Below are positions 12,129 through 47,703 of a DNA stretch of 49,221 bases, one piece after another. A program made the translations under genes and the position numbers. Under the pieces are notes generated by a model. The model had not been told where the DNA came from, ran no database searches, and saw only the letters and a program-made list of their open reading frames with translations. Each line of letters begins with the position of its first letter. Positions within the stretch are counted from its first letter, which is position 1. Source of the DNA: a virus (Duplodnaviria > Caudoviricetes); IMG/VR virus record IMGVR_UViG_3300025288_000032, positions 1-49,221 of that record. One strand, given 5' to 3'.

Positions 12129-14936
12129 ATGAACACGTTGAGTTTCCTTCAGCGAGTTCTACCGTCGACGGGTTTTTACGCTTCCCTGACCATTAGTTCG
12201 AAGGGGCAACGTCAAAAATTCTTCAGTACCGTAGAAGAACTCGCAGTATCTGTAATCAGTTACGACCGAAGAGGCGACAATACTTATTACGCAATTTCGG
12301 CCTACAACGATAGAAGATCTCGGAAACAGGAGAATGTTCGTGTAACTAAAGTCATTGCCTTGGATGTCGATTGCGGAAGCGACAAACCCTTCCCAACGTG
12401 GAAAGAAGGCTTGGCAGCAACCGGTGCATTCATTGGACAATTGAATTTGCCCAAACCCATGATTGTTCATTCGGGCAATGGGTTGCACGTGTACTGGGTA
12501 CTGACTGAAGAGCTTGAGCCAATGCGATGGAAGCCTTTGGCCGAAGCACTGAAGAAGGCAGCCAAAGCCAGGGGATTCGAAATTGACCCAGCAGTGCCGG
12601 CGGACAACGCACGTGTGCTGCGTCCCATAGGAACTGCAAACCGTAAAAGCGGCACCACGGTTCGATTACTCGTCGATGCACTCCCAAGTACCACCGCGCA
12701 GTTATCTGCGTGCCTGGCGCCTTATATGGCGCCTAGAAGCGATTTAGCGCAGGCTCTTAGTTTTCCCCTAGCCAATGCCACAGTCGTAGCCGCAAAGTGC
12801 CCACAAATCAACTGGGCCATCAAGCATCAGAGCGAGGTCGAGGAACCATTCTGGTACGGGTTGCTTGGTATTGCTGCCTACTGTCAAGACGAAGCCGCAA
12901 CGGCCATCGCATGGAGCGACCAGCACCCGCAATACAACCAAGACGAAACGATCCACAAATTACAGCATTGGAAGCAAGCTGCAACTGGACCAACGACTTG
13001 CAAGAAATTCGAAGAATTGCGCCCCGCTGGTTGCAAAGGGTGCAAGTTCAAAAACAAGGTGGGTACTCCTGCCCGACTCGGTGTCCAATACCTCGATGTT
13101 GTATTGCCAACCGACATTCCCGATCACACTGCTAGCAGTATCCCCGTACCGAAACCGTTCAAGCGCACGGTTGATGGTATAAAAATGATTGTCGATGGAA
13201 CAGATATTGATATATGTAAATTCGATGTCTACCCAGTTTCCTACGGTAAAGACGAAACACTTGGATACGAAACGGTGTGCTTTCACTGGAATCGTTTGCA
13301 CGCCGGATGGCGAGAGCTTAAACTACGACAAGCTCTACTAACAGAAGGGCATCGCGATTTTGCGACGGCTATTGCCGACCAGGGTATCGTACTTCAGAAT
13401 CGAAATCAGACAGAATATTTCCAGCTTATGCTACGTTCATACATGGACGAATTGCGCCAAAAACGCGCGATGACAAATCTGTATGCCACGATGGGGTGGA
13501 AAGAGAATTTCTCCCGCTTCATTATTGGGGATACGATTTTGCGACGTAATGTCGATGGCTCCGTTAACGAAGACTTAGTCAGTCTGTCATCAGGCGCGAC
13601 CAAGCTGGGACATGAATTGTGGAACACATCCGGGTCACTCGAAGAGTGGATCAAATTTACATCGTTGGTTGCGAAAGCCGATTTGCGAGCCCACATGTTT
13701 GCGCTGACTGTTGGTTTTTCTGCGCCTCTATATGCATTCACAGGGCTTAAGGGGCTGATTATTTCGCTCTATGGCCCAACCGGTGGCGGTAAGACTTTGG
13801 CGCAGATGTGGATTCAATCTATTTTTGGTAACCCGGAAAGGCTGCACTTCGCTGCCAAGTTTACCCAGAATGCCTTATTTGGACGCATGGGATTGTATTC
13901 GCACATGCCCATGACCATCGATGAAGTGACGCTGATGAATAACAAGGATGTAGGTGACTTCATTTACTGGGTAAGCCAAGGGCGTGACAAGGCACGAATG
14001 ACCCAAGCTGCGGAAGAACGCGATGCCAAAATATGGGCTTTGCCAGTCGTGGTGTCTACCAATAAGTCCATCAACTCCAAACTGATTGCCGGTGGCATGG
14101 ATACTGATGCACAATTAGCACGTATCCTCGAACTCAACGTCCCCTCCAATTCGTTATTTACCAGAGATAGCACTGCCGGTCGCAAGATATATGAATTCGT
14201 CACTACTAATTATGGCCATGTCGGACGCGAATTTATCAAGCATCTGTTGGAACTCGGCAACTCAGGCATACGCGCAGCCATCGCGCAAGCTACCGAAGAT
14301 TTTCATCGAGAGTATTCTGCGCATTTCTCCGGCGAAGAGCGTTATTGGGAACAAGCCATTATTCTCGCCGATCTTGCCGGTAAACTGGCAAAAAGCTGGG
14401 GTCTCATCGCATTCGATCACAAAGCTGGTATTGAGTGGGTACTAGCATACATAGGTGTTGTCCGGCGTGCCATATCCGAATTCAAAATCGACGCATTCGA
14501 CACATTGACCGAATATTTGAACACACATGCAGAAGCTACTTTGATTGTTACACAAACAGGCGCTAACAAACCAATAGTGGATTTCAACCGCCTACCACGA
14601 GGGGAACTACGGGTGCGTTTTGAACTGTTTCGTAAAACAAGTGGCGAGGCTTTTACTCGTGGTACTGTCGTAATAGATCGCACTCATCTTAGACGCTGGC
14701 TCGCCCAGCAAGGCATAGACTACAAAGCCTTCCTAAATGACTTGCAGGACGAAGGTATCATTGTTCCAACGAAAAATAACAAGGCTTACCTTGGTAAAAA
14801 TTCACCGATCAAGTTAGGCCAATCTTATGTACTAAGTATAAACCTTACACATTCGAGGTTGCAAGGTATCCTGAATGACGCTGATCAAGCACTCGAAGAC
14901 CTGGCTTTCGGGCAACTCAAGATAGTAGATCAATAA
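12129..14936 (+). CDS. Primase-helicase (AEP/RepB-like primase, PriCT-like region, DUF927/SF3-type helicase)
   Basis: ALDVD, SGNGLHVYW, RVLRPIGT; Cys cluster C..F.....GC.GC; Walker A GPTGGGKT, Walker B MTIDE. Confidence 0.88.
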   Translation: MNTLSFLQRVLPSTGFYASLTISSKGQRQKFFSTVEELAVSVISYDRRGDNTYYAISAYNDRRSRKQENVRVTKVIALDVDCGSDKPFPTWKEGLAATGAFIGQLNLPKPMIVHSGNGLHVYWVLTEELEPMRWKPLAEALKKAAKARGFEIDPAVPADNARVLRPIGTANRKSGTTVRLLVDALPSTTAQLSACLAPYMAPRSDLAQALSFPLANATVVAAKCPQINWAIKHQSEVEEPFWYGLLGIAAYCQDEAATAIAWSDQHPQYNQDETIHKLQHWKQAATGPTTCKKFEELRPAGCKGCKFKNKVGTPARLGVQYLDVVLPTDIPDHTASSIPVPKPFKRTVDGIKMIVDGTDIDICKFDVYPVSYGKDETLGYETVCFHWNRLHAGWRELKLRQALLTEGHRDFATAIADQGIVLQNRNQTEYFQLMLRSYMDELRQKRAMTNLYATMGWKENFSRFIIGDTILRRNVDGSVNEDLVSLSSGATKLGHELWNTSGSLEEWIKFTSLVAKADLRAHMFALTVGFSAPLYAFTGLKGLIISLYGPTGGGKTLAQMWIQSIFGNPERLHFAAKFTQNALFGRMGLYSHMPMTIDEVTLMNNKDVGDFIYWVSQGRDKARMTQAAEERDAKIWALPVVVSTNKSINSKLIAGGMDTDAQLARILELNVPSNSLFTRDSTAGRKIYEFVTTNYGHVGREFIKHLLELGNSGIRAAIAQATEDFHREYSAHFSGEERYWEQAIILADLAGKLAKSWGLIAFDHKAGIEWVLAYIGVVRRAISEFKIDAFDTLTEYLNTHAEATLIVTQTGANKPIVDFNRLPRGELRVRFELFRKTSGEAFTRGTVVIDRTHLRRWLAQQGIDYKAFLNDLQDEGIIVPTKNNKAYLGKNSPIKLGQSYVLSINLTHSRLQGILNDADQALEDLAFGQLKIVDQ

Positions 14937-17900
14937 TGCGCTGAGTTTCCGGGCGCAGAGTTCTCGAAACCGACCGCAAAAATCGCTCAGTCGTGGTACG
15001 CTTGGCTTCTCGCAAAGCACGATTAGCCAGACTCTCGAAGTTACCGATTTCAAGGCCAGTACCTTTGGCAGCCTTGTTCCAGTCTCTGACCATCTGCACT
15101 ACTTCCCGTGCGTGTCTCTCATCCTTGGCAAGTTTAGCTCCAATGTATAGTCCACGATAAGTCGTGGTGATTTCCTTTTGATAGTCTCCGACCCGCTTGG
15201 CCATACGTACTACATCGTTTTCAGCAACAGCGGAAGCCGGATAAAAACTCAGAGCACGGGTCAGCATGGTACCCAGATGTAGGTCATTACTGACTACATA
15301 GCCTTTGCGATTAATAATGGCTCCTGCGTTGTTGTACGCCATCATGTCACCCAGAGCACGAAATGCCACGGCTGGCGACTCCCGTAGTACCTTGTTGAAA
15401 GACGTAGTATCGTCGATGACTCCTGCGGTTCCCAATCCCCATTTAGCAGCGTTTGCAGCGGTTACCAGCGCACCTTGCATGAACGAAGCAACTGGCCCCG
15501 CGATCTCGACTAGTTCACGTCCTACGTTTGCGCCTGCTAGAGCGATGCCCGTACCAGGGAAGACATTGGATAGCGAGACACGATCTGCCACGTTGGCGGG
15601 TGTAAAAGAATTGAGAAATCCGCGCATCAGAACGGGCGTCATACCAGGGGCAATGGCATCCAGGGCTTCTGCTAGAGTTCGTTCAGCACTCCCTTTCCAT
15701 AGCTTGCTAGGGCCAAGCCCAAGTGCTTGTGCGATAGTATCAATGATGTCTGCTAAGTCATCGGCGAATGGCAATCCCTTGAGCCCGGAAAAAAGCGCAA
15801 GAATACCTAGTGCCAGTAATTGTTCTTTTCTTGCTAACGCAGACAACATCAGGATACTATTAACGGGAAAGGTCTTAAATATGAATAAGAATTGCCGCAC
15901 ATCACCTCGAAATAAAGCCGGCCTGTTATGCAACGCATAGTCGCCCAATGTATTGTTGATCATGTCTACAGCGAATCTATCAGCCGCCTCGAATGCTGTA
16001 GCCTTGTCTTTACCTTCAGCCAAGGCGCGAGCGTAGGCCAGACGAAACGTAGCCAATCCTGTTGCCCGGCGACTGTGCTGTTCGGTAAAGTTGAACAGCG
16101 ACATCCACGTCTGGGCTGCGGCTTTGGTAGCACCAGAGCGAAACTTGCCGCGCGCGGAGCCCAGCAGCGCGTTAGTCAGTGCAGCTTGCATGGTGCCGCC
16201 ACCAACCTCTTTCTGCATGAACAAGGCTTCGGCTTCGGTAAAACCGGACGCAGCGAGTTTGTCAGGATCAGCCAACAGGTCGTCCCAGAATTTCACTTCG
16301 CTTTGTTTATTGGCTCTGGTAATGTTGGTAGCACGGCTTACTTCCACGGTGGATAGACCCCAACCGAATCCACCACCGAACGCATTTTTCTCGTTGTACC
16401 CAGCCAAAGCAGGCACCACGTTCGTTGCCAGCGCCATGTAATTCAGGAGTGCTGTAGCGAATGAGGCTCCCATGAAGGTAAAAGTCGTAGCTGTGCGAAT
16501 AACGGAGGCCGCGTCGCCCGATGCGAAATCTGTGTAGTCTACATTCTGCTGGGACTCCATGAAAGCCACGGCCCTGCGGCCGCGATCCTTGAATCGATTA
16601 CCCATGACAGGTGAATTTTTAGTCACGAACGTGTAATGGTAGTCATCGAACTCTCGCTTAATCGCGAATTTTTGAGCTTCTGACATGTTCGGGTTTTCTT
16701 TAGCCGTTTCCCATGCGGTTTTGCGCCGCTCATACTCAAGTTTATCCCCAAACCATAGGCGGATGGCTTCTGGGTTTTTGTCGTCGAACAAACGGTCGAG
16801 CCGATGGCGATTTCGCTTACGCGCTACAGTGGATGCGGTTGATTCAAGATGCTGTGACACATACTTGATGGTATTCGGGTCTTCGCCAGGAGTATTGGCA
16901 CGACGCAAACGAGTACGAGCCTTGGCGTTTTGTTTGGTTAAACCGACGATCAGATTCTTACGTTCTTCCGGAGTGATACTGATAGAAAAACGGGTGAGCG
17001 TGGCGATGATTTCATTGAGATTTGCTTCGGCAGCAACGGTAACAGTTTCGCGTGCCGTTTCAGCGTGTGCAACAAGTTTGACTTTTTTCACTACGAAGTC
17101 AGCGCCATCCAGCACTTCCAGTTCGAAGCCATTCTCTACATCATCGAATAAGCTCTGCACACGTTCTGCCATTGCCTCAGCCTGAGCACGTGTTTTTACT
17201 TGCGCGAACAGAAGATGCTGGCGGTACTGTTCCGATATTTTGTAGATGCGTCCCGTCTGGGGGTCAGTAGCCTGGATGCGCACTTGCCATGAGCCTTCAC
17301 GCCCGAACGGAACATAACCACCCGCGATAGAGCGCTTGGCAAACAACTCCGCATCTGTTTTGCTCAGTTCGAACAAGGCCAGATTCTGGACGGCTTGCTG
17401 CATAATGAAGCGATCTGGACCTGAATGCGGAATGTTGGACCCTTTCTTGAGGGCCTCAATACCTGCAAAAATATCGTCGGCTTTGGCATCGTCGAAAAAT
17501 TCCTGCACGTCCTGGTTACGATCGGTATCGCGACCTAGTACAGCAGCATTGAATTTTTTGGCAAACTCATCCGCAGTAGCTATCGAGGCTTGTTTAGTCA
17601 GGAGAACACCACTAGCGTCAATAGTGGAATCCTTGGATCGTAGCTCTAGATATTTATCTTCGATGGTTGTAATGAATGCACGGTCATTTTCAGTTAGTGC
17701 TCGGTCGAGGAATCGTTGCAGGACATGTTCCACATTGACACGTTCGCCTTTGGCCGCAGTGTAATTTGCCAACAGCATATCAAGGGCCGATTGATTCATC
17801 GTGTCACGTACTTCGTTGTACATGATCCACTCAGGGCTATCTTCAGTCAGTTCGGGTATGGCTGTAAAAACTTGCTCCACTTCGACAGTGCCAGACGGGT

Positions 17901-20900
17901 TATCGATAAGTTTCTGGTATTCGCGCTCGATAGCTCTGCGATCTTTGTCGCTTACTGCTTCGGAAAGCTCTTGATTTCGTTCCGCGCGTAGCGCATCTTT
18001 TTGCTCTTCGGTTATGGGCCGCGCTACATCGATTGTATAAATGATACCTTGCTTAAATTCCTCTAATGTATGCTTACCACGCGCTGCCAAGAGACTGAAT
18101 ACTTCCTGATTGACATTAGCTTCGCCGGCGTCGATGGTAATTAGAGAAGCCATTTTACGTAAATCCGCATCGGTCAAGCTGCCCAGTTTCACTCTACTAG
18201 TGACATTGAGCATTGCCGAGGTGCGATTGATCTGTTCCTTGGTAGCACCTTTGGTAAGCTGCCCGCTTAGTAATTCCACGGATGGAGACAGCACCGTGTT
18301 CATCATTTTGTTGTACTGAGCACGCAGTTGCGATGCTACTTTGCTCGTATCCCGAAAAATATCGTACAGGCGGCGATACCCTTGATTTTCTCGGGCTAAG
18401 AAATTCATCAACTTCAGTTCGTCGATCAAACGATTAGCGAAGTCACCAATATTTATGCCATTGTCTTTAGCTTCTTGGAATATGCTGGTGAGATCGAATA
18501 GTTTCGTGCTACGTTGCCCAAAGGCATTCGATGCTGCTACTCTATTGATTTCATCATAGTATTCCCCAGCTAATGCGAAGCGACCGGCGTTGTCTGGATC
18601 GGTGATACTCTCGATGTCACCTAATCGCTGAGCCAGTGTTCTATAGTCTACAAACGTACCTTTGGTAACACCGTTACGCACGTAGCGCCGAGATTGGCTA
18701 ACTAGATACCGAGCAGCATCGTCATCGAATTGAATACCCAGACTATTCAGGATATTCTTGATTGCATTCCAGAATCGCGAAATAATGTTCGTATCCAGGA
18801 TTCCTGCAAAATCGGCAAGATACTCCTCAGTAGCTTCCTGGCGACTTATCTTGCGAGCTTCCATGGCGGTGTTCACCGCAGCTTTGACCTTAGCACTGGA
18901 ATTGTAGACTGCATCGAGCGCAGTACGCAGTTCCTTTGGAGTCAGCAAACTACCAAAGCCGAAGTGCCCAAGCGACTCGTGTGCCAATGTAAATTTTAGT
19001 TGTTGCTCGGTAACGATACGGTCAGCAAAAATAATGACATTACCATTACCGAACGAGTAGCCTGTGGCGTTGGCTGTATCGAAATCTCCTTGCGGGCGAG
19101 CGGCAACGGCTTGTGCGTACAAACTGGGATTCTTCGCTTTGAAATCTGTTTGATTTCGATAAACGTATATTTTTGGGCGAATTTTCAGTCGCGACAAAAA
19201 CGCGATAGCTAGTAATTTTGTGCGACCTATTGAGACAGGTTTTGTAATGGGGGTGCCATCAGCATAATAATAACGACCGGTATTCTTGATATTCCAGTCG
19301 TCCAGCGAAAACGGAGCCTCGTAAGCGTCATCAGTTACATTGCTAGATTCGTCGATGAGCTTTTCTCGCTTGGCACGTACAGCGGGAGTTAGTTTTTCAG
19401 TAGCTACACGAAAGCTACCTTTGACGGTACCAGTGTAGGGCACGCCGGCCGCGTTGAAATAGGCAGATAGCTTGGTTCCGCTATGATCGAGGAACGATTC
19501 CAGTTTGGCAGCTAGCACAGCAGCCCATAGAGTACTCAGTTTTTTGATAACGCTTTGTTGCTGAGTTTTATTGAGCTTGTTCGGTTTGGTATTTTGTTCC
19601 TTGATATAGTCCGCCAGTATCGTTGCCGCGTTTGAGCGCGTATCCGTACCTTGCTTGGTACCAGGATTAGGAGTCTTGAGCTTGTTAGCCGTGGCAACAG
19701 GTAAATTCGCCGTGCGCAGTTGCCCAGAAGCGAGTAATTTCTTGGCCGCTTCGATTGGTAGCCCTTTGACTACGGTATTAAGTCCGGGTAACAACCCACG
19801 TCGTGTGACGTAATCGAACCACGGCTTGGAGTTACCTTTGTTTTCTCCGCGAGTGTATATCGCCTCAACTGCCAATAACGCATTAGCTTGCTTAAGTACG
19901 AGAGCATCTATGATATTTTGCTGCGCGTCGGAGAAAGTTGTATTTGTCAATAATTCACGGGCGCGTACAATTGCCGCCTTGGTGTTAGTTTCCTCATTGA
20001 CAAAATATGCGAATTCAATTACGACATCGATAGAATCGTGAAAATCCTGATTACGAATAGATGCCGCAGCCACAGAGAATTCAGTTTCAACCATTTGCAG
20101 CGGAGTCTCTTCGACTGTATCGAAAAGTTCCTCAGCCCTGCGTATGGTAGCTTTGTTACTGGCTACGATTTGACGCCACTCAGCACGTACAGATGCAGGC
20201 AATTTATCAAAAGTCGGAGCGCCTTCGGGTTTCATATCTTCCCACGCATCGGCGGGAGGAAGTGGCTCGACTTTTACTTGAGCTTTTTCTGCTTTTTTAG
20301 CGGCGACGGGCGCCGCTTGGGTTTTTGCTGCAACAGGTGCTACTTCCGCTGCCAGGATAGGCGCTAGTTCCTTAGCAGCGACGGGCGCTGTTTCTTTAGC
20401 GGCGACGGGCGCCGCTTCTTTAGCGGCAACGAGCGCTGCTTCTTTAGCGGCGACGGGCGCCGCTTGGGTTTTTGGGCGTTTGGATTCCTCTACCTGAATA
20501 GCGGATTTTTGCTTTTCTTTTTTCTCTTTGCCTTTGGTTTTGAGTTTGCTACCCTTTCCGGCAGTTTTTCGCTCGGTGGGTATTCCCGCTCCCACTCTTC
20601 CGCTAGTTTTGGGTTGTTTGCGTGCAACCACCGACGTTGTGCTTCGCTTTTGAACGGCACGTGGAGCCTCCTTCGGTACAATTTCGACTGCGGCAACACC
20701 TGCTTGACGTTTCAACCCGCGTTGTGTACGAAGTCTAACGACTGGCGGTTTGGCTGGGGCAACTACGATCTTTCTTTTCAACCCAGCTCCCTTGAGTGCA
20801 GCTATTGTCGGTTGCCCTTCTTGATTGAATATCGAAAGCTGAGTAGCAGTTGGCGAAACTTCAATAGGAGCAGCAGCTACTGAACGAGTACCAGGGATAC

Positions 20901-22923
20901 CACGACGCAGCGCTTCTCGCCGGCTAGGACGCGGAGCTTCTCGTCGCTTGAACAATTCAAGCTGTGTTGCCTGTGCTACTTTGTCTTGCTGTGTCGGCTC
21001 AACAGCAGCGACTTGTTGCGCTTGTTGTAGTATGAACAAGTCACGAGCATTCTGACTTTGCTGAGCCAGTTGCTCTGTTTGTCGTTGAATGAGTGCCTGT
21101 TGTTGAGCCTGTGCAGCTTCGAATTCTCGCTGGCGCCGCAAACGATCCCGAATAGCTTGTAACTGGTTACTTATTTGCGGGTTGAAGGGCGCTTGGGGAG
21201 CAGGACCGGAAAACTGAAGCGCCCCTTGAGCCGGGTTGAATACAGGCTGCGTTGGATTGACTACAGGCTGAATCGGATTGACTACAGGCTGAGCTTGACT
21301 TTGGTCAATAAAAGGAAATGCTGCCTGATTCTGCTGCAAGAATGGAAGCTCGCCCTGAGCCGGGTTGAATACAGGCTGCGTTGGATTGACTACAGGCTGA
21401 ATCGGACTGACTACAGGCTGAGCTTGACTTTGGTCAATAAAAGGAAATGCTACCTGATTCTGCCTTGGAAAAGGAAGTTCACCCTGGGCTGGATTGATTT
21501 CGGGAAGTATTGTTAAAGGAGATGCCTCGGACGCCGGAGCTCGCGGTTGCCTACGATAAGCCAATTCTTCCGCGGATAGCTCTCCAAAAATATTGAGTAC
21601 GCCTTGAGTACCTACTGGTTCAGGATTCTGAGCTGGATTAAGTAGATTAGCAGGTTGCCTACCTCGCAGATGCGCGATAGTGCCAAGCGGGCTACCAATA
21701 CCAGCTCCGGCAGCAAACGAGTTAATCAGCCGCTTGATATTTTCGGGAGCCTCGAAATCCTGATCCGACAAACCCAGCAGCAACGCTTCCTGCCCTAGCT
21801 CTTCAGTACCTTCAACAGTCCCTGCAACCGCGCCGCCTACTGCGCCACGTCGAAGTAGCTCTGCTCCCTTACGAGGAAGCGACGTTCCAGCACGTAACGC
21901 TGCTGGAGCACCTACGCCCTTAAATACACGAAGCGCCAATGCGTATTCCGGTAGTATGTCGAGAGCGGCGTAAACAGGTGCTCCGGACAAAGCCTTGAGG
22001 CGGGCTACTGTATCATCGGCATTAGCACCCTGGTCTCTCAATTCCCCATAGATGTCCCCCACGCCTATGCCGTAATCAGCTCCAAAAGATGCAGCAACAG
22101 CACCGGTAATGCCAGCAGCATTACGTAGCAATTTCTGCTCGGCGAAATTCAGACTTTCGTTTTTGAGGCGTTTGGTAAGTGCCGCTTTGACGCTTTGCTT
22201 CCACGCCGCCTTGCTAACCAAAGCGGCAAACGCGGCAAGCGCACCCCCAATAGGAGTACCGGAAGCAGCAGTACCAGCAACGAAACCTGTAACTGCCGCT
22301 GCAACAGACTCGATCAAATTCGGGCCTTGTTGTGCAAAATTCGCTACCAGCCAGTCAACGGCACCTTTACTGGAGTCGATATCGGTGAACTCACGTTCGA
22401 ATGGAGCGGTTTTACGTAGGTCTTCTACTTGTTGCTCGACAATTTTCCCGCCGGTTTCTTCAGCACCAACCGCCTGCAATGCACGGCCTGCCAGCAACTG
22501 CATGACATCGACCCCACGCCCAAAGTTACGCGTCGCAAGAGTTTCAAGCGACGGATCGCGTGCATTCTGGATAAGCTGTTTGTAGGACCGCATACCCAGA
22601 GGAATGAAATCGTTGTTTGTAGGAAATCCAGTAGGTCTACTATCGAGCAACGTTTCGGATTGCAGTAACGCTTGTGCGTCATCGTCTTTGAACGTTATCC
22701 CCTGAACATAGAATTCCTTGCGCGCACGATTGTATCCAATCGAAGGTTCTGGGGATGCCTCGGAAGTAGCGAACTGATTTCGCTGAGCAAGCTGAACACC
22801 CGCAGCAGCCAAACCTGCTAAATTATTAGCCGGTGTCGTAAGCGCATCCTGAAAACCAAACGGATTTCCTGATGCTTCAGGCGTGTCTTGAAAACCAAAC
22901 GGATTTACGATAGGAGACACCAT
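14917..22923 (-). CDS. Giant (2668 aa) internal virion/ejection protein with a putative zincin-like metallopeptidase motif
   Basis: Last gene of the structural arm, after an SLT-containing protein; LAHESLGH...EEYLA; helical C-terminal region. Confidence 0.8.
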   Translation of the reverse strand: MVSPIVNPFGFQDTPEASGNPFGFQDALTTPANNLAGLAAAGVQLAQRNQFATSEASPEPSIGYNRARKEFYVQGITFKDDDAQALLQSETLLDSRPTGFPTNNDFIPLGMRSYKQLIQNARDPSLETLATRNFGRGVDVMQLLAGRALQAVGAEETGGKIVEQQVEDLRKTAPFEREFTDIDSSKGAVDWLVANFAQQGPNLIESVAAAVTGFVAGTAASGTPIGGALAAFAALVSKAAWKQSVKAALTKRLKNESLNFAEQKLLRNAAGITGAVAASFGADYGIGVGDIYGELRDQGANADDTVARLKALSGAPVYAALDILPEYALALRVFKGVGAPAALRAGTSLPRKGAELLRRGAVGGAVAGTVEGTEELGQEALLLGLSDQDFEAPENIKRLINSFAAGAGIGSPLGTIAHLRGRQPANLLNPAQNPEPVGTQGVLNIFGELSAEELAYRRQPRAPASEASPLTILPEINPAQGELPFPRQNQVAFPFIDQSQAQPVVSPIQPVVNPTQPVFNPAQGELPFLQQNQAAFPFIDQSQAQPVVNPIQPVVNPTQPVFNPAQGALQFSGPAPQAPFNPQISNQLQAIRDRLRRQREFEAAQAQQQALIQRQTEQLAQQSQNARDLFILQQAQQVAAVEPTQQDKVAQATQLELFKRREAPRPSRREALRRGIPGTRSVAAAPIEVSPTATQLSIFNQEGQPTIAALKGAGLKRKIVVAPAKPPVVRLRTQRGLKRQAGVAAVEIVPKEAPRAVQKRSTTSVVARKQPKTSGRVGAGIPTERKTAGKGSKLKTKGKEKKEKQKSAIQVEESKRPKTQAAPVAAKEAALVAAKEAAPVAAKETAPVAAKELAPILAAEVAPVAAKTQAAPVAAKKAEKAQVKVEPLPPADAWEDMKPEGAPTFDKLPASVRAEWRQIVASNKATIRRAEELFDTVEETPLQMVETEFSVAAASIRNQDFHDSIDVVIEFAYFVNEETNTKAAIVRARELLTNTTFSDAQQNIIDALVLKQANALLAVEAIYTRGENKGNSKPWFDYVTRRGLLPGLNTVVKGLPIEAAKKLLASGQLRTANLPVATANKLKTPNPGTKQGTDTRSNAATILADYIKEQNTKPNKLNKTQQQSVIKKLSTLWAAVLAAKLESFLDHSGTKLSAYFNAAGVPYTGTVKGSFRVATEKLTPAVRAKREKLIDESSNVTDDAYEAPFSLDDWNIKNTGRYYYADGTPITKPVSIGRTKLLAIAFLSRLKIRPKIYVYRNQTDFKAKNPSLYAQAVAARPQGDFDTANATGYSFGNGNVIIFADRIVTEQQLKFTLAHESLGHFGFGSLLTPKELRTALDAVYNSSAKVKAAVNTAMEARKISRQEATEEYLADFAGILDTNIISRFWNAIKNILNSLGIQFDDDAARYLVSQSRRYVRNGVTKGTFVDYRTLAQRLGDIESITDPDNAGRFALAGEYYDEINRVAASNAFGQRSTKLFDLTSIFQEAKDNGINIGDFANRLIDELKLMNFLARENQGYRRLYDIFRDTSKVASQLRAQYNKMMNTVLSPSVELLSGQLTKGATKEQINRTSAMLNVTSRVKLGSLTDADLRKMASLITIDAGEANVNQEVFSLLAARGKHTLEEFKQGIIYTIDVARPITEEQKDALRAERNQELSEAVSDKDRRAIEREYQKLIDNPSGTVEVEQVFTAIPELTEDSPEWIMYNEVRDTMNQSALDMLLANYTAAKGERVNVEHVLQRFLDRALTENDRAFITTIEDKYLELRSKDSTIDASGVLLTKQASIATADEFAKKFNAAVLGRDTDRNQDVQEFFDDAKADDIFAGIEALKKGSNIPHSGPDRFIMQQAVQNLALFELSKTDAELFAKRSIAGGYVPFGREGSWQVRIQATDPQTGRIYKISEQYRQHLLFAQVKTRAQAEAMAERVQSLFDDVENGFELEVLDGADFVVKKVKLVAHAETARETVTVAAEANLNEIIATLTRFSISITPEERKNLIVGLTKQNAKARTRLRRANTPGEDPNTIKYVSQHLESTASTVARKRNRHRLDRLFDDKNPEAIRLWFGDKLEYERRKTAWETAKENPNMSEAQKFAIKREFDDYHYTFVTKNSPVMGNRFKDRGRRAVAFMESQQNVDYTDFASGDAASVIRTATTFTFMGASFATALLNYMALATNVVPALAGYNEKNAFGGGFGWGLSTVEVSRATNITRANKQSEVKFWDDLLADPDKLAASGFTEAEALFMQKEVGGGTMQAALTNALLGSARGKFRSGATKAAAQTWMSLFNFTEQHSRRATGLATFRLAYARALAEGKDKATAFEAADRFAVDMINNTLGDYALHNRPALFRGDVRQFLFIFKTFPVNSILMLSALARKEQLLALGILALFSGLKGLPFADDLADIIDTIAQALGLGPSKLWKGSAERTLAEALDAIAPGMTPVLMRGFLNSFTPANVADRVSLSNVFPGTGIALAGANVGRELVEIAGPVASFMQGALVTAANAAKWGLGTAGVIDDTTSFNKVLRESPAVAFRALGDMMAYNNAGAIINRKGYVVSNDLHLGTMLTRALSFYPASAVAENDVVRMAKRVGDYQKEITTTYRGLYIGAKLAKDERHAREVVQMVRDWNKAAKGTGLEIGNFESLANRALREAKRTTTERFLRSVSRTLRPETQRIIDLLS
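20295..20468 (-). repeat. 24-bp coding repeats (AAPVAAKE-like, about 7 copies)
   Basis: ttagcggcgacgggcgccgctt-type units seen directly. Confidence 0.85.
20490..20660 (-). CDS. Nested out-of-frame small basic protein (MPFKSEAQRRWLHANNPKLAEEWEREYP..., 56 aa)
   Basis: AAGGAGG 6 nt before the GTG start; resembles recurrent phage MPFKSxAQRR-type small proteins (from recall, not searched). Confidence 0.65.
   Translation of the reverse strand: MPFKSEAQRRWLHANNPKLAEEWEREYPPSEKLPERVANSKPKAKRKKKSKNPLFR
21225..21495 (-). repeat. 129-bp (43-aa) near-perfect tandem duplication in the giant gene
   Basis: ccgggttgaatacaggctgcg at 21231 and 21360. Confidence 0.92.
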
Positions 22924-22924
22924 A

Positions 22925-24742
22925 TTAGTAGCCTACATTCAGACCTGCGACAGGTTGTGCAACTGGCGGAAGCGTAATTGGACCAGCCGCAGATTCCTCG
23001 ATTGTACCCTCGGCTGGAATTACGAATACTTGGTTGCCGCGCTGTAGGTAAGCTATACCCTTGGTAGTGTCGATAGTTAATTTGCCATTCTGTTGTTTGG
23101 CCCGCTCTACAGCCAGATTGTATTCGCCTTGCACAATTGAATTCTGAATATCTCGCATGGCGTTGACTAGTGCATCGCCGTATCTCTGTTTGAGGGCTAG
23201 TTCATTTTCCATCGCAGCAGACTTGGCGTGTGCAGCACGAGCATTAGGGCTGAACTCTCTGAGTGCCATCGTAGCCAACATTGCCGGAGACACACCTTCC
23301 TTCACTTTCTTGCCATTGACAAAGTAGTTATACTTGCCATCTGTACGAGGCTGAATCCCTACCGGGGCTCCCAGGTATTGCGTCAGCACTCCGGCTAACC
23401 GGCGAGGATCGTTAGCCGCTGTGAGTTCACGTAGCCCCTGCATTCCTTGTAGATAGGTTTGCTTCTCTGCAACTTGTTGCTGCAATTGAAGCAATCCTGC
23501 GTCAATTTTACCAATCGAATCCCGCAACCGGTCAGCCGCTTGGATACCTCCAGCCGTACCGCTACGCATATACACTTGTGCCAATTGCCCCGCTTCGTTA
23601 CGCTGCCTTGTAAGAAAACTCATTTGTTGCTGCGCAACTTGTTGTAGCTGCTGCAATTCGAAAGGAATGGTTTGTGGATTGGCAAGGTAGAATTCAGCCA
23701 ATTGCTTGTTACGTGCCTGAGTCTGCGGAATTTCAAGCGGCGAGCTCGTTCTTGCCAGAATAGTGTCGGTTACCGCAGCTACACTAGTCTTGCTGGCTCC
23801 CTTATATTTTTGAATGGCCCGTGTGTAGTCGCCGTTATTTTGCTGGAGATATTGGGCAAACAACTGTGCTGCAAATGGAATGGCTGTATTCGGATCGAGC
23901 CGTTGCTTACGAGTCAAACCATGTACATCGGCAATTTGTGCAATACCCAGCCCAAATTTCTCTCCACGAGGAGACACCGCTTTTGGGTTAAACGACGATT
24001 CCGTACCAAGCAAGCGCTTGAATATTACGGCGTCAATACCGTTTTGCTGAGCACTCTGAGTAATCAGTGCATCGTATGGTGTAGTTGTAGCATCATATTT
24101 CTGCGTTTGTTTGGGAGCAGAAGGAGCAGCCTGAGCCACAGAAGGAGCAGCAGGAGCAGCAGAGGTGCTCAGAGGATATGTATACTGCGGATTAACCCGC
24201 TGATACTCCGCACGAGCGACAGGTATTGCTTGTTTATAGTAACTTGACTCCAAACGAGCTATTTCTTTTTTCGTAGCAGCGATCTGAGCCTTGTTACCTA
24301 CCGGCGTCGGTAAGTAAAACGGACCTTCTAGCTCTTTTAAGCGCATACGAGCTTGACCAAGCTGCGAAAAAAGACCTTCAGGATACTGCAATCCTGCTGA
24401 CTGCGCAGCAGGAGCAGCCTGAGCCACAGAAGGAGCAGAAGGAGCAGCCTGAGCCACAGAAGGAGCAGCAGGAGCAACAGGAGCAACAGAAGCAACAGGA
24501 GTAACAGGAGCATTAGCCAAAGGCAGTGCTTGCCCAGGGGCAATTCCTTGTGCAAACTGAGCTACATCCACAGGCTGAAACGAAGGTAACTGCAACCCAG
24601 CTAGATTCTGTTTCAAGTCAGCGATACGATTCTGTTCCTCGGTTGCTAGTTGATTTTGCCGAGCAACACGAATTGCTTCTTCAGCCTGTCGCTGACCTTG
24701 ACTAACGACGCCGGCATTACCAAGCAGTTGTCCGAAATCCAT
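22925..24742 (-). CDS. Internal virion/ejection protein with a lytic transglycosylase (SLT) domain
   Basis: LLGTESSFNPKAVS, GLGIAQI, AIQKYKG; Ala/Pro-rich repeats. Confidence 0.85.
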   Translation of the reverse strand: MDFGQLLGNAGVVSQGQRQAEEAIRVARQNQLATEEQNRIADLKQNLAGLQLPSFQPVDVAQFAQGIAPGQALPLANAPVTPVASVAPVAPAAPSVAQAAPSAPSVAQAAPAAQSAGLQYPEGLFSQLGQARMRLKELEGPFYLPTPVGNKAQIAATKKEIARLESSYYKQAIPVARAEYQRVNPQYTYPLSTSAAPAAPSVAQAAPSAPKQTQKYDATTTPYDALITQSAQQNGIDAVIFKRLLGTESSFNPKAVSPRGEKFGLGIAQIADVHGLTRKQRLDPNTAIPFAAQLFAQYLQQNNGDYTRAIQKYKGASKTSVAAVTDTILARTSSPLEIPQTQARNKQLAEFYLANPQTIPFELQQLQQVAQQQMSFLTRQRNEAGQLAQVYMRSGTAGGIQAADRLRDSIGKIDAGLLQLQQQVAEKQTYLQGMQGLRELTAANDPRRLAGVLTQYLGAPVGIQPRTDGKYNYFVNGKKVKEGVSPAMLATMALREFSPNARAAHAKSAAMENELALKQRYGDALVNAMRDIQNSIVQGEYNLAVERAKQQNGKLTIDTTKGIAYLQRGNQVFVIPAEGTIEESAAGPITLPPVAQPVAGLNVGY

Positions 24743-24747
24743 GAGAT

Positions 24748-26112
24748 TTACCTTCCGCGACTTCTAGCTTCTTCAGTACCAGTAAGGGAGCCAAACAAAC
24801 TCCCAATATCCAGCGCGCGCTGTCTTGCACGAAGAGCAGCATCGGCATTACTGGCACGCAAACCTGAGAAACTTCCTGTACTATTCGGATACTCCTTCGG
24901 CAATGCGTTCAAACCTGCCTGTATGGTGCTTAGCCGCCCAGAAATACCTTGCAGAAGCCCTTGATCGAACGCACTACCTGTATCTCGGGCAGTTGCCAAA
25001 TCGAAGCGTCGCGCTTCAGCCGTACGAACCGGCCCTTCGAGTCCGCGTAGTCCAGCTTGCTTGGCACGAGCACCGGCTGTTTGTGCTCGTCGAGCACGTT
25101 GCAAACCGAAATACTCAGGATCGAAGTATTTGGACTCGCCGATGAGATTTTGTGCTTGCTCCAAACGAAGCGCAAACAAGCCGGCATTATTTTGCTGAAG
25201 CGTACGCAATTCCTCGGTCTGCGCATCTAGCAAAGCTCGTTCTGCATCGGTAAGTCCGTCGCCCGCCAAAGCCGATCCAGCAAGATTGCCGGCAGCGCGA
25301 AGTGTCAGATCAGCCAGTGCTTTGGGATCGCTGAACTTAGCCGCAATCTCGCCAGGTACTCTCTTGAGTGCCTCAATGAATGACAGCGGCTTATTCGGCG
25401 CAGGAACCTGCCCACTCGGAGTAGCAGCAGCTTGGAAAGCACCCGACCCAGTAATCGTTTGCGTGCCGCCCGTAATGGGGTTGAGTGTAGTTAGTTGTAA
25501 CCCAGTAGACGGCGGCGCATATGCACCTAAACTATAATCAAGTGGAACTCCCGCTGCTGTTGCAGCATTTGCCCCAGCTTGGAAGAACCCCGGATTAGGA
25601 GCTTGAAAACCAACACCAGCCGTTGCCGGATTAAATCCACCCGTGGGGAATTGCACTCCCGAGGTAAGACTATAATCTAACCCATCAAATCCTGCTCCTG
25701 TCTCCGCGCCGCTAAGAGAGACTGGGAACGTCGTTGCCGGTGCTGCCCCGCCAAAACCTGTTGCCGCCTCACCAGCACCTAGATTCAATCCGGCAGGCGG
25801 TTGTCCAATTGCAGAAAACGTGGGTTGCGCAGCGGCAGCAGATGGGGCAGAAATAAAGCCACCAATCCCCCCGCCAATCCCCCCGGTCAAAGCGCCTTTG
25901 AGGAAACTACCTCCAAGTACCGCTTGCGAGGCACCCCCTAGTACCGTCCCAACAGCAGCAGACCCAAGTACGCTACCAACTGTTGCGGAGACTCCGAATG
26001 TGGCAGCACTAATGCCGAATGAAGTAGCAATGGAGCTGGCAATGACTGGTGCGGCAAAAGGAATTGCTATTGCTGCGGCTACCCCAATAATAGTTTTTAC
26101 GGCTTTGCTCAT
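24748..26112 (-). CDS. Ejection/DNA-transfer (pilot-like) protein, Gly/Ala-rich hydrophobic N-terminus
   Basis: AGGAGG RBS before ATG 26112; position ahead of the SLT protein. Confidence 0.72.
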   Translation of the reverse strand: MSKAVKTIIGVAAAIAIPFAAPVIASSIATSFGISAATFGVSATVGSVLGSAAVGTVLGGASQAVLGGSFLKGALTGGIGGGIGGFISAPSAAAAQPTFSAIGQPPAGLNLGAGEAATGFGGAAPATTFPVSLSGAETGAGFDGLDYSLTSGVQFPTGGFNPATAGVGFQAPNPGFFQAGANAATAAGVPLDYSLGAYAPPSTGLQLTTLNPITGGTQTITGSGAFQAAATPSGQVPAPNKPLSFIEALKRVPGEIAAKFSDPKALADLTLRAAGNLAGSALAGDGLTDAERALLDAQTEELRTLQQNNAGLFALRLEQAQNLIGESKYFDPEYFGLQRARRAQTAGARAKQAGLRGLEGPVRTAEARRFDLATARDTGSAFDQGLLQGISGRLSTIQAGLNALPKEYPNSTGSFSGLRASNADAALRARQRALDIGSLFGSLTGTEEARSRGR

Positions 26113-26372
26113 TCTACCCTCCTGCAACGCTCCAGAATTGCACGAATTAGTGTATCATCATCCTTCAACGCGAAGTAGTCAAGCAACAACGCTTTCACCT
26201 GCTCCGAAGACGCGGTTGTTGGTGCCAACGTTTCCCATCGAAGCTCTGGCGCCCCCGAAACTTCACTCACGCACGGCACCATCACCGGTATCTTCACCGT
26301 TTCAGGCACCGCGGGCAAGCTATTGCACCCGGCGAGCAGCAGAGAACAGAGCACCAATCGTCGCAAGTTCAT
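26109..26372 (-). CDS. o-spanin (Rz1-like lipoprotein)
   Basis: Lipobox LLAGC, Pro-rich segment, overlaps the i-spanin 3' end. Confidence 0.82.
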   Translation of the reverse strand: MNLRRLVLCSLLLAGCNSLPAVPETVKIPVMVPCVSEVSGAPELRWETLAPTTASSEQVKALLLDYFALKDDDTLIRAILERCRRVE

Positions 26373-40202: not shown

Positions 40203-40444
40203 TTCGGCCAGCCTTTCGCGGCTTCCTGAGCCAGTTCAGGGGTAGTATATGCCGGAGCTTCAGGAACATCGTCAGTCGTCAAATTCAGAGTACCCTTCTT
40301 CCTGCGTGCCGCAGTTTTCGGCATGAATCGCTCAGGATAGGCAACCTCTTCAGAGACTAATTCACAAGCCGGATTCTCGGCCATGTACTTATTGTATTCG
40401 TAGATGAACCCATCCGCCTTCACACGAATATACTGCTTGGTCAT
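40199..40444 (-). CDS. Hypothetical protein
   Basis: Four-base stop-start overlaps at both ends. Confidence 0.72.
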   Translation of the reverse strand: MTKQYIRVKADGFIYEYNKYMAENPACELVSEEVAYPERFMPKTAARRKKGTLNLTTDDVPEAPAYTTPELAQEAAKGWPK

Positions 40445-40617
40445 TTTCGTAATCTCCGCAATGTTTGCGCCAATCGAGCGCGCTGCCCCAACTTACCCGG
40501 TTTTTTAGCAGCCGCAGCAAGCGCCGCTTCGGGAATCGTTGCTCCCTTTTTGACGCCCAACGTTTTACGCAAAGCACCAGGATGCTTGATTGCTGCCTTG
40601 ATGAAATGCTTAGCCAT
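40441..40617 (-). CDS. Small basic protein (MAKHFIKAAIKHPGALRKTLGV...RARLAQTLRRLRK, 58 aa), not in the ORF track
   Basis: Read manually; its stop overlaps the next ATG; K/A-rich. Confidence 0.78.
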   Translation of the reverse strand: MAKHFIKAAIKHPGALRKTLGVKKGATIPEAALAAAAKKPGKLGQRARLAQTLRRLRK

Positions 40618-47119: not shown

Positions 47120-47485
47120 TTGGCCGTTGGCATATTTCGTGGTTATTATATTGGCATATTTTTTGATTACGCCGTTGGCATATTTTTGGATTACGCCGTT
47201 GACATATTTTTGGATTACACCGTTGGCATATTTTTGGATTACGCCGTTGGCATATTGGCATATTTCGTGGTTAGCATATTGGCATATTTTTGGATTACGC
47301 CGTTGACATATTTTTGGATTACGCTGTTGACATATTGGCATATTTTTGGATTACGCCGTTGGCATATTTTTGGATTACGCCGTTGGCATATTTCGTGGTT
47401 AGCATATTGGCATATTTTTGGATTACACCGTTGACATATTTTTGGATTACTCCGTTGGCATATTGGCATATTTACATATTTCGTA
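47120..47485. repeat. Tandem 24-bp/8-bp repeat array (ggcatatttttggattacgccgtt)
   Basis: About 11 units interleaved with variants; core TTGGCATA/TTGACATA/TTAGCATA; no unique spacers. Confidence 0.93.
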
Positions 47486-47578
47486 ATTTTGGATTTTTGG
47501 ATCTCGGTTTATGAGGCTTACTACACTTACCGGGGGCCTCGTTTTTTCAAATCCATGTACCCCCCCCACCTGCCTATA

Positions 47579-47703
47579 CGCCGTTGGCATATCGCGCAGA
47601 CAACGCCGTTGGCATATCAAACAGATAATGCCGTTAGCATATCAAACAGATAATGCCGTTGGCATATCAAACAGATAATGCCATTGTCATATCGCGCAGA
47701 TAA
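47579..47703. repeat. Five 25-bp tandem repeats (ygccgttggcatatcaaacagataa)
   Basis: Seen directly; shares gccgttggcatat with the 24-bp array. Confidence 0.92.

Follow-up and report, generated by a model that had tools for sequence, protein, structure and literature searches.

The gene of a likely ejection protein in a podophage-like virus contains a second, complete gene in its +1 frame, and the position of this inner gene is a three-state locus, occupied by a small gene of one family (A), by one of an unrelated family (B) or by none; closely related phages differ in its state, and the exchanged stretch is delimited by the start and stop codons. The window (the whole stretch of DNA analysed, 49,221 nucleotides, which is an entire 49-kb virus record) carries these elements as follows.

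14917..22923, minus strand: 2668-aa giant host gene, at the end of the virion operon
20490..20660, minus strand: nested 56-codon gene (family A), GTG at 20660-20658 and TAG at 20492-20490
20673-20667, minus strand: Shine-Dalgarno (SD) AAGGAGG, then a 6-nt spacer (ctccac) and the nested GTG
20360..20760, minus strand: variable, predicted disordered host linker with the slot (charge/hydropathy index)

A preliminary description of the sequence had reported the SD, its 6-nt spacer and a minus-strand ORF of 56 aa lying wholly inside the giant ORF; all of this was confirmed, with the residues as quoted there. The nested ORF occupies the +1 frame of the giant ORF and spans host residues about 755-811; the host frame reads the bases of the SD as Lys-Glu, and the swapped stretch starts right after the SD. 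Among the 206 out-of-frame ATG, GTG and TTG codons of the giant gene, the nested GTG ranks first by SD duplex energy (-11.7 kcal/mol; the major capsid gene reaches -8.4 and the start of the giant itself -2.4), calculated with an anti-SD motif. No sigma-70 promoter was found inside 20200-21300. The encoded peptide is small and basic (6.8 kDa, pI about 10.4, 16 Lys and Arg, 7 Asp and Glu), and inspection of its sequence showed neither Cys nor a signal peptide. Its predicted structure consists of two short helices (6-15 and 17-26) followed by an extended basic tail (pLDDT 76, pTM 0.40); a Foldseek search with this model returned no match under E 5, and a PDB sequence search with the A and B profiles gave best E values of 0.085 (A) and 0.019 (B), both over short, chance-like stretches. 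Searches of PHROG, Pfam and NCBIfam with the 56-aa peptide matched no family. The small gene is a complete ORF with its own SD and start inside another ORF, its frame is conserved and under purifying selection, and we consider it very probably a real, translated gene.

The gene order of the window is podophage-like, with terminase, portal, capsid and tail fibres followed by three genes of 459, 605 and 2668 aa, the main features of which are:

24748..26127, minus strand: 459-aa unannotated protein, first of the 459/605/2668-aa triple
22925..24742, minus strand: 605-aa SLT transglycosylase protein, directly upstream of the giant (phrog_342, internal virion protein with endolysin domain)
18964..18981, minus strand: HESLGH, residues 1315-1320 of the giant, similar to zinc-peptidase motifs (motif only)
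15034..16512, minus strand: PLxRFG domain of the giant (NF032893, 117.2 bits against a cutoff of 100; host residues 2138-2630)

By analogy, this triple appears to resemble podophage ejection-protein triples, and the giant itself is likely an internal virion or ejection protein, judging from where its gene lies and from comparable proteins, among them phi24B gp47, reported as abundant in virions and proposed as an ejection protein (bioRxiv 10.64898/2026.04.10.717836). The giant shares 25% identity with Pseudomonas phage F116 gp60. No domain match was found behind its HESLGH motif, and the protein gave no match to an LPD, methylase or helicase domain. The host frame around the nested gene had been described as a low-complexity, Lys-rich linker; the slot lies in the most disorder-prone stretch of the N-terminal half, according to a simple charge/hydropathy index, and the host frame is hydrophilic there. 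In-frame tandem repeats flank the slot, one with a 129-nt unit (21208-21497) and one, just past the nested stop, with 4.4 copies of a 24-nt unit coding for Ala, Pro and Lys (20360-20465), and the giant's linker grows by duplication.

The slot was surveyed from the host side, so that the small ORF did not take part in the queries. A first search with host sequence only identified eight loci, of which one (L001, an IMG/VR contig) is 100% identical to the window over the region and may represent the same phage. Among the seven non-identical loci, five keep A in the same phase, while two have a 59-aa basic gene (family B) behind the same SD-GTG; conservation of the alternate frame and its SD in homologous giants, which the preliminary description had named as a check, was found in most of them. 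Family B corresponds to phrog_2423 (match E 1e-7), and six of 34 B sequences match DUF6496 weakly. Homology between A and B was not detected by hhalign, their profile alignment having a probability of 1.7%. In a second survey a profile of the giant's C-terminal 600 residues yielded 79 loci out of 129 confirmed. Twenty-nine of these, in which the host frame runs off the locus start without an A or B match, were left out because the slot may lie outside the covered stretch, and a few of them (L104, L114 and L147) could be empty alleles. The 50 informative loci comprise 35 with A, nine with B and six with none, all A and B matches being in the +1 frame; when only full-length hosts are considered (n=42), the numbers are 30, 6 and 6. 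In one of the six empty loci (L155) the host's whole N-terminal part is missing. Clustering of the hosts at 97% gives 28 A, 6 B, 5 empty and 1 mixed cluster, and at 90% the slot states are mixed in 2 of 33 clusters. No occupants other than these two families were seen in the 44 filled slots.

At the level of whole genomes, local profiles identified A only in the window, G011 and G015, B only in G006 and G007, and neither in G004 and G005, a pattern with which remote searches of 15 genomes agree, and which indicates that the slot is dispensable and has one occupant in every case seen. Neither A nor B was found moved elsewhere in the empty-slot genomes (0/5 for each, two of the genomes being complete), and local HMMs with working positive controls concur. 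For G004, a complete genome with neither A nor B, a filter for small basic genes gave no convincing other candidate, so that no such protein seems essential. Small basic genes other than A and B occur in varying sets in five of six related genomes, and the window has one of its own:

40441..40617, minus strand: gene for a separate 58-aa basic protein, directly behind that of the major capsid protein; it represents a third small basic family, unrelated to A and B

This gene has no PHROG match, and is present in two of the six related genomes (G006 and G007), where its homologs are 71-76% identical and lie near other small basic genes.

The exchange of alleles can be followed at the level of single bases. 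The loci L098 (B) and L102 (A) are 90.5% identical in DNA up to the start codon and 93.3% from the stop codon onward, and between the two codons they are unalignable by BLAST, the divergence beginning just after the start codon. In the empty locus L133 the stretch is missing in frame from the SD-coding Lys-Glu onward, and the two host parts are joined in frame. Unlike states were found in several groups of sister hosts (L098 with B and L102 with A; L107 with B and L103 with A; L119 with B and L133 empty; L125 with B, L127 empty and L124 with A). On a FastTree phylogeny of the host C-terminus B needs seven changes, six of which are forced by starred branches (shuffled mean 8.5), the method being weak on long branches and any tree being blurred where hosts recombine. 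The deep-branching hosts L106, L113 and L142 are empty, which fits gain as well as loss. We propose that the alleles would move by homologous recombination within the conserved host flanks, as a result of which the host frame would be kept.

The two frames of the slot differ strongly in selection. In A (28 nested sequences, first 26 codons) pN/pS is 0.39 in the small frame vs 1.92 in the host frame, with amino-acid identities of 0.60 and 0.40, respectively, and in B (8 sequences, 54 codons) it is 0.28 vs 2.02, with identities of 0.90 and 0.67; the pN/pS pairs are not independent of each other in either set. At position 3 of the small codons, which is position 1 of the host codons, T accounts for 2.3% in 34 nested genes vs 20.9% in 28 stand-alone ones, and this deficit persists where T makes no stop (30/829 vs 122/691). 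Likewise, the residues F, W, Y, C, L, I and M make up 3.9% of the host-phase frame in nested genes compared to 13.5% in stand-alone ones. In each of the 44 host-ascertained filled loci the host frame stays open across the slot. Host-phase stops, in contrast, are present in 27 of the 28 distinct A genes that stand alone; since an open host frame served to define nesting, the absence of stops from nested loci is partly circular. The host frame is constrained in openness and composition, not in sequence. Taken together, selection on the small frame and the host-phase deficit of T and hydrophobic residues indicate that the small protein is conserved, and that the slot serves the giant as a hydrophilic spacer which it reads through. 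Dual coding, as proposed in the preliminary description, is supported by this purifying selection and the open, hydrophilic host frame, as well as by the conserved SD and start and the existence of stand-alone homologs.

The likeness of the peptide to stand-alone small phage proteins, put forward earlier from recall, was borne out by 11 stand-alone homologs with E<=1e-3 among 32 candidates. A relative is encoded in 526 of 599 pattern-matched viral stretches, and the best 80 loci comprise 37 nested and 43 stand-alone copies, nesting in the +2 frame occurring in none. The hosts of nested A fall into seven BLAST clusters, including giants that are barely related to that of the window, and nesting is always in the +1 frame; a PLxRFG domain was found in two other nested-host clusters tested (L014 and L023), and four others are without it. 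One giant group shows three layouts, with A embedded (L062, L064), overlapping the giant's end (L058) or 12 nt downstream of it (L041). Stand-alone A is present in the cultured phages C75C1, 023Pt_psg01, Streptomyces FlowerPower and P-RSP2. For two of these four copies, those of P-RSP2 (L092:7001) and C75C1 (L089:7001), the gene is unannotated in the GenBank records. Stand-alone homologs match phrog_1375 weakly (E 1e-3 to 1e-6), the window peptide itself being without a match; this profile failed as a control, missing A in genomes that carry it, whereas the phrog_2423 profile worked. Pfam gave only four single weak matches against 63 A members, and the closest clusters in the ESM Atlas (0.94-0.95) consist of unnamed viral proteins, with DUF3008 at only 0.82. 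On this distribution, family A appears to be an old and widespread stand-alone family. The median SD energy over 38 nested loci is -8.7 kcal/mol. The nested A genes at 6001 of L036, L039, L062 and L064, which belong to a different giant group, have A-rich leaders and no SD, suggesting hosts that initiate translation without it, of which the Bacteroidota are an example. Another giant with nested A (L049:3504-11300) also contains a MutS domain I at residues 1666-1737.

A gene overprinted de novo was ruled out by the old, widespread stand-alone family, and the inner gene is, as far as the sequences tell, the conserved and older-looking partner, the host linker being the derived frame. Regarding the route to nesting, the loss of an upstream stop followed by read-through into the next gene would give this layout, and insertion into a pre-existing linker may equally have done so. 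In 44 of 68 stand-alone B genes the start codon falls within the final eight codons of a long ORF upstream, in the same phase as nesting, and this ORF was the portal in both cases scanned. A survey of spanin genes, in its available text, also proposes a route by loss of an upstream stop codon (PMC6139136). The earlier suggestion of a captured gene that is read through by the giant fits in so far as separate genes of the family are common and some giants do without the stretch; an AU test on the A-module tree (38 columns) did not separate one from several origins of nesting (p=0.11). Homology between the giant's N-terminal part and the roughly 790-aa gene before stand-alone B was rejected, as there is no BLAST match and that gene is the portal. 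L067 (2261-4525) and L069 contain a gene of 754 aa with weak similarity to the N-terminal part of the giant; it stops 89 codons past the start of nested A, and may be an intermediate between separate and fused layouts.

As to function, we favour with moderate confidence the reading that the nested product is a dispensable, probably abundant, head-internal basic protein, in which the helical module would act as a packaging leader and the tail would neutralise DNA. The placement in the head interior draws on the location in virion modules, the N-terminal fusions of A and B and the varying sets of other small basic genes. In most loci scanned, stand-alone A lies beside portal, terminase, tail fibre or sheath, or giant genes, and stand-alone A and B are mostly found in virion modules. 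Copies outside head modules are a B gene among tRNAs in phiCbK, a B gene after the endolysin in phage O4 and the A gene before the holin in Streptomyces FlowerPower, and several stand-alone A genes lie near polymerase, ligase or methylase genes. Longer homologs of A number 237 proteins; of the 120 that were listed, 113 begin with the A module, and only 17 have Pfam labels. The module is fused to MuF/SPP1-gp7 minor head protein, lysozyme and minor-head-like domains, and to further domains known by accession, which we take to be InPase, NUDIX, SET and ADP-ribosyltransferase. The family B module forms the N-terminus of the head maturation protease of an Acinetobacter phage (Obolenskvirus; L273:4001-5335). 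Acinetobacter phages also made up 77 of the 150 phage records matched by the B query. Iyer et al., in the accessible part of their survey, predict MuF and InPase proteins to be packaged, and MuF, InPase, NUDIX and ADP-ribosyltransferase (the last three by their presumed Pfam names) are among the domains so predicted there (PMC5512222). The phiCbK virion proteome, in its available description, comprises eight proteins, among which the B homolog gp80 is not named, and excluded the gel dye front.

Under the head-protein reading, ribosomes would start at the nested SD on late virion mRNA by internal initiation, and the strength of this SD suggests that the small protein is made in more copies than the giant. 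The giant would read the slot as a sequence-tolerant spacer between its N-terminal part and the part with the peptidase motif and the PLxRFG domain. The conserved 35-residue helical module would direct the nested protein into the prohead, where its Lys/Arg tail would neutralise packaged DNA. The protein would belong to a redundant panel of small basic head proteins, which in this proposal is why an unrelated B can replace A, and why A can be lost; that A and B have equal function is something we infer only, as the two are not detectably homologous. More tentatively, giant ejection-protein genes might hold an out-of-frame expression slot, whose SD and start are fixed within a linker that tolerates change; recombination would replace one small gene there by an unrelated one and leave the host frame intact. 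The occupants could be an undescribed class of head-packaging leaders, which many phages would in addition have fused to the fronts of enzymes for capsid loading and injection.

The main rival to a head-internal basic protein accepts the nested gene as real, and makes its product a peptide that, like the T4 internal proteins, is packaged and injected and then counters host defence or interacts with the host, the A, B and empty states being kept by frequency-dependent selection across hosts. We consider this unlikely, although non-homologous and non-essential alleles are indeed swapped among near-identical phages, and the small gene is encoded within a likely ejection protein. As far as the available text of their description goes, T4 Ip1-3 are small, non-essential, mutually non-homologous, variable in presence and packaged via an N-terminal signal (a packaging module that we presume for A and B), and each blocks one GmrSD variant (PMC12373910). 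They differ in being separate genes with one shared signal and shown targets, whereas A and B are nested and conserved across host phyla (PMC12373910). The strong conservation of A and B across phages of Streptomyces, cyanobacteria, Caulobacter and Pseudomonas is unlike that of target-specific inhibitors, just two occupants were seen among the 44 filled slots, and no signal is detectably common to A and B; an N-terminal capsid-targeting signal common to the alleles, as in the T4 proteins, was not found in a comparison of A with B, in which the profiles did not align. Somewhat less probable still is a non-virion late protein, either one that assists the giant or portal in assembly as chaperone or counter-ion, or one that binds nucleic acids and regulates late expression or lysis. 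Such a role would suit a protein co-translated with the giant, and it would suit the stand-alone A genes that immediately follow giants (L041, L045, L058) and the copies that adjoin lysis genes or tRNAs. A dedicated partner is, however, hard to reconcile with replacement by an unrelated gene, with loss in close relatives and with the module serving as N-terminal leader of unrelated enzymes.

Two further explanations concern the frame itself, and both appear very improbable. A programmed -1 frameshift at an A_AAA_AAG near the nested end would place the A module before the giant's C-terminal 1,860 residues, which would agree with its use as a leader on other proteins, and in the window the heptamer is in phase at codon 46. 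It is present, however, in 2 of 44 A genes and 0 of 15 B genes when these are nested, vs 3 of 28 and 8 of 60 when they stand alone, and nested stops are kept after 40-98 codons; a frameshift role was rejected because the slippery heptamer is not conserved. Equally improbable is a silent relic or chance frame, or a giant that in truth consists of two genes separated by the small one. The early end of the host in L067 and L069 and the host without N-terminal part in L155 could be read in this way, but the small frame is under purifying selection with conserved SDs, the host frame stays open in every filled locus where stand-alone A genes nearly always have stops, and empty alleles join both host parts in frame.

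Few cases of nested phage genes are known, and they are usually viewed as fixed, co-evolved pairs or as new overprinted genes. The arrangement described here is the embedded-gene layout of Rz/Rz1, yet it is neither a spanin nor a de novo overprinted gene. As in the lambda Rz/Rz1 spanins, a whole gene lies in the +1 frame of another and is usually missed by gene callers, and embedded, overlapped and separated architectures all occur (PMC6139136). The spanins form an obligate, interacting lysis pair, whereas here the inner gene is dispensable, amounts to about 2% of the host gene and is replaced by a non-homolog; moreover, in the accessible part of the spanin survey no family spans embedded and other architectures, whereas family A spans all three (PMC6139136). 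Nested A is without lipoprotein or lysis features, and identity with a two-component spanin was rejected, the 56 aa having no Cys or signal peptide and the host being a PLxRFG giant. The host gene resembles the polyvalent and PLxRFG giant virion proteins, which are very large, multi-part, last in their operon and endowed with a PLxRFG domain and a peptidase-like motif; it differs from them in that the searches revealed no LPD, methylase or helicase domain, and a nested gene is unmentioned for them in the available texts (PMC5512222; bioRxiv 10.64898/2026.04.10.717836). The A gene is absent from the F116 and Y7 giants. No description of this nested swap arrangement or of its function was found in the literature covered, most subscription journals and supplements lying outside that coverage.

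The present analysis contributes host-ascertained allele counts, base-level swap boundaries, mutual exclusion at the whole-genome level and a survey of fusions, and it places an old gene family inside giant virion genes of several phage groups, in a slot that is a three-allele locus with non-homologous occupants. Such a slot allows the origin and the exchange of overlaps to be studied in a natural experiment, and a conserved Lys/Gln/Glu-rich motif in many annotations of giant proteins would be the trace of an overlooked gene. Should the A module act as a packaging leader, this would give a function to a large unnamed viral family, as well as a short tag to load cargo into capsids. Apart from the slot, the region upstream of the terminase region (47123-47703) contains arrays of 24-25-nt repeats with a common GCCGTTGGCATAT core, which are candidate origin iterons or packaging or regulatory sites.
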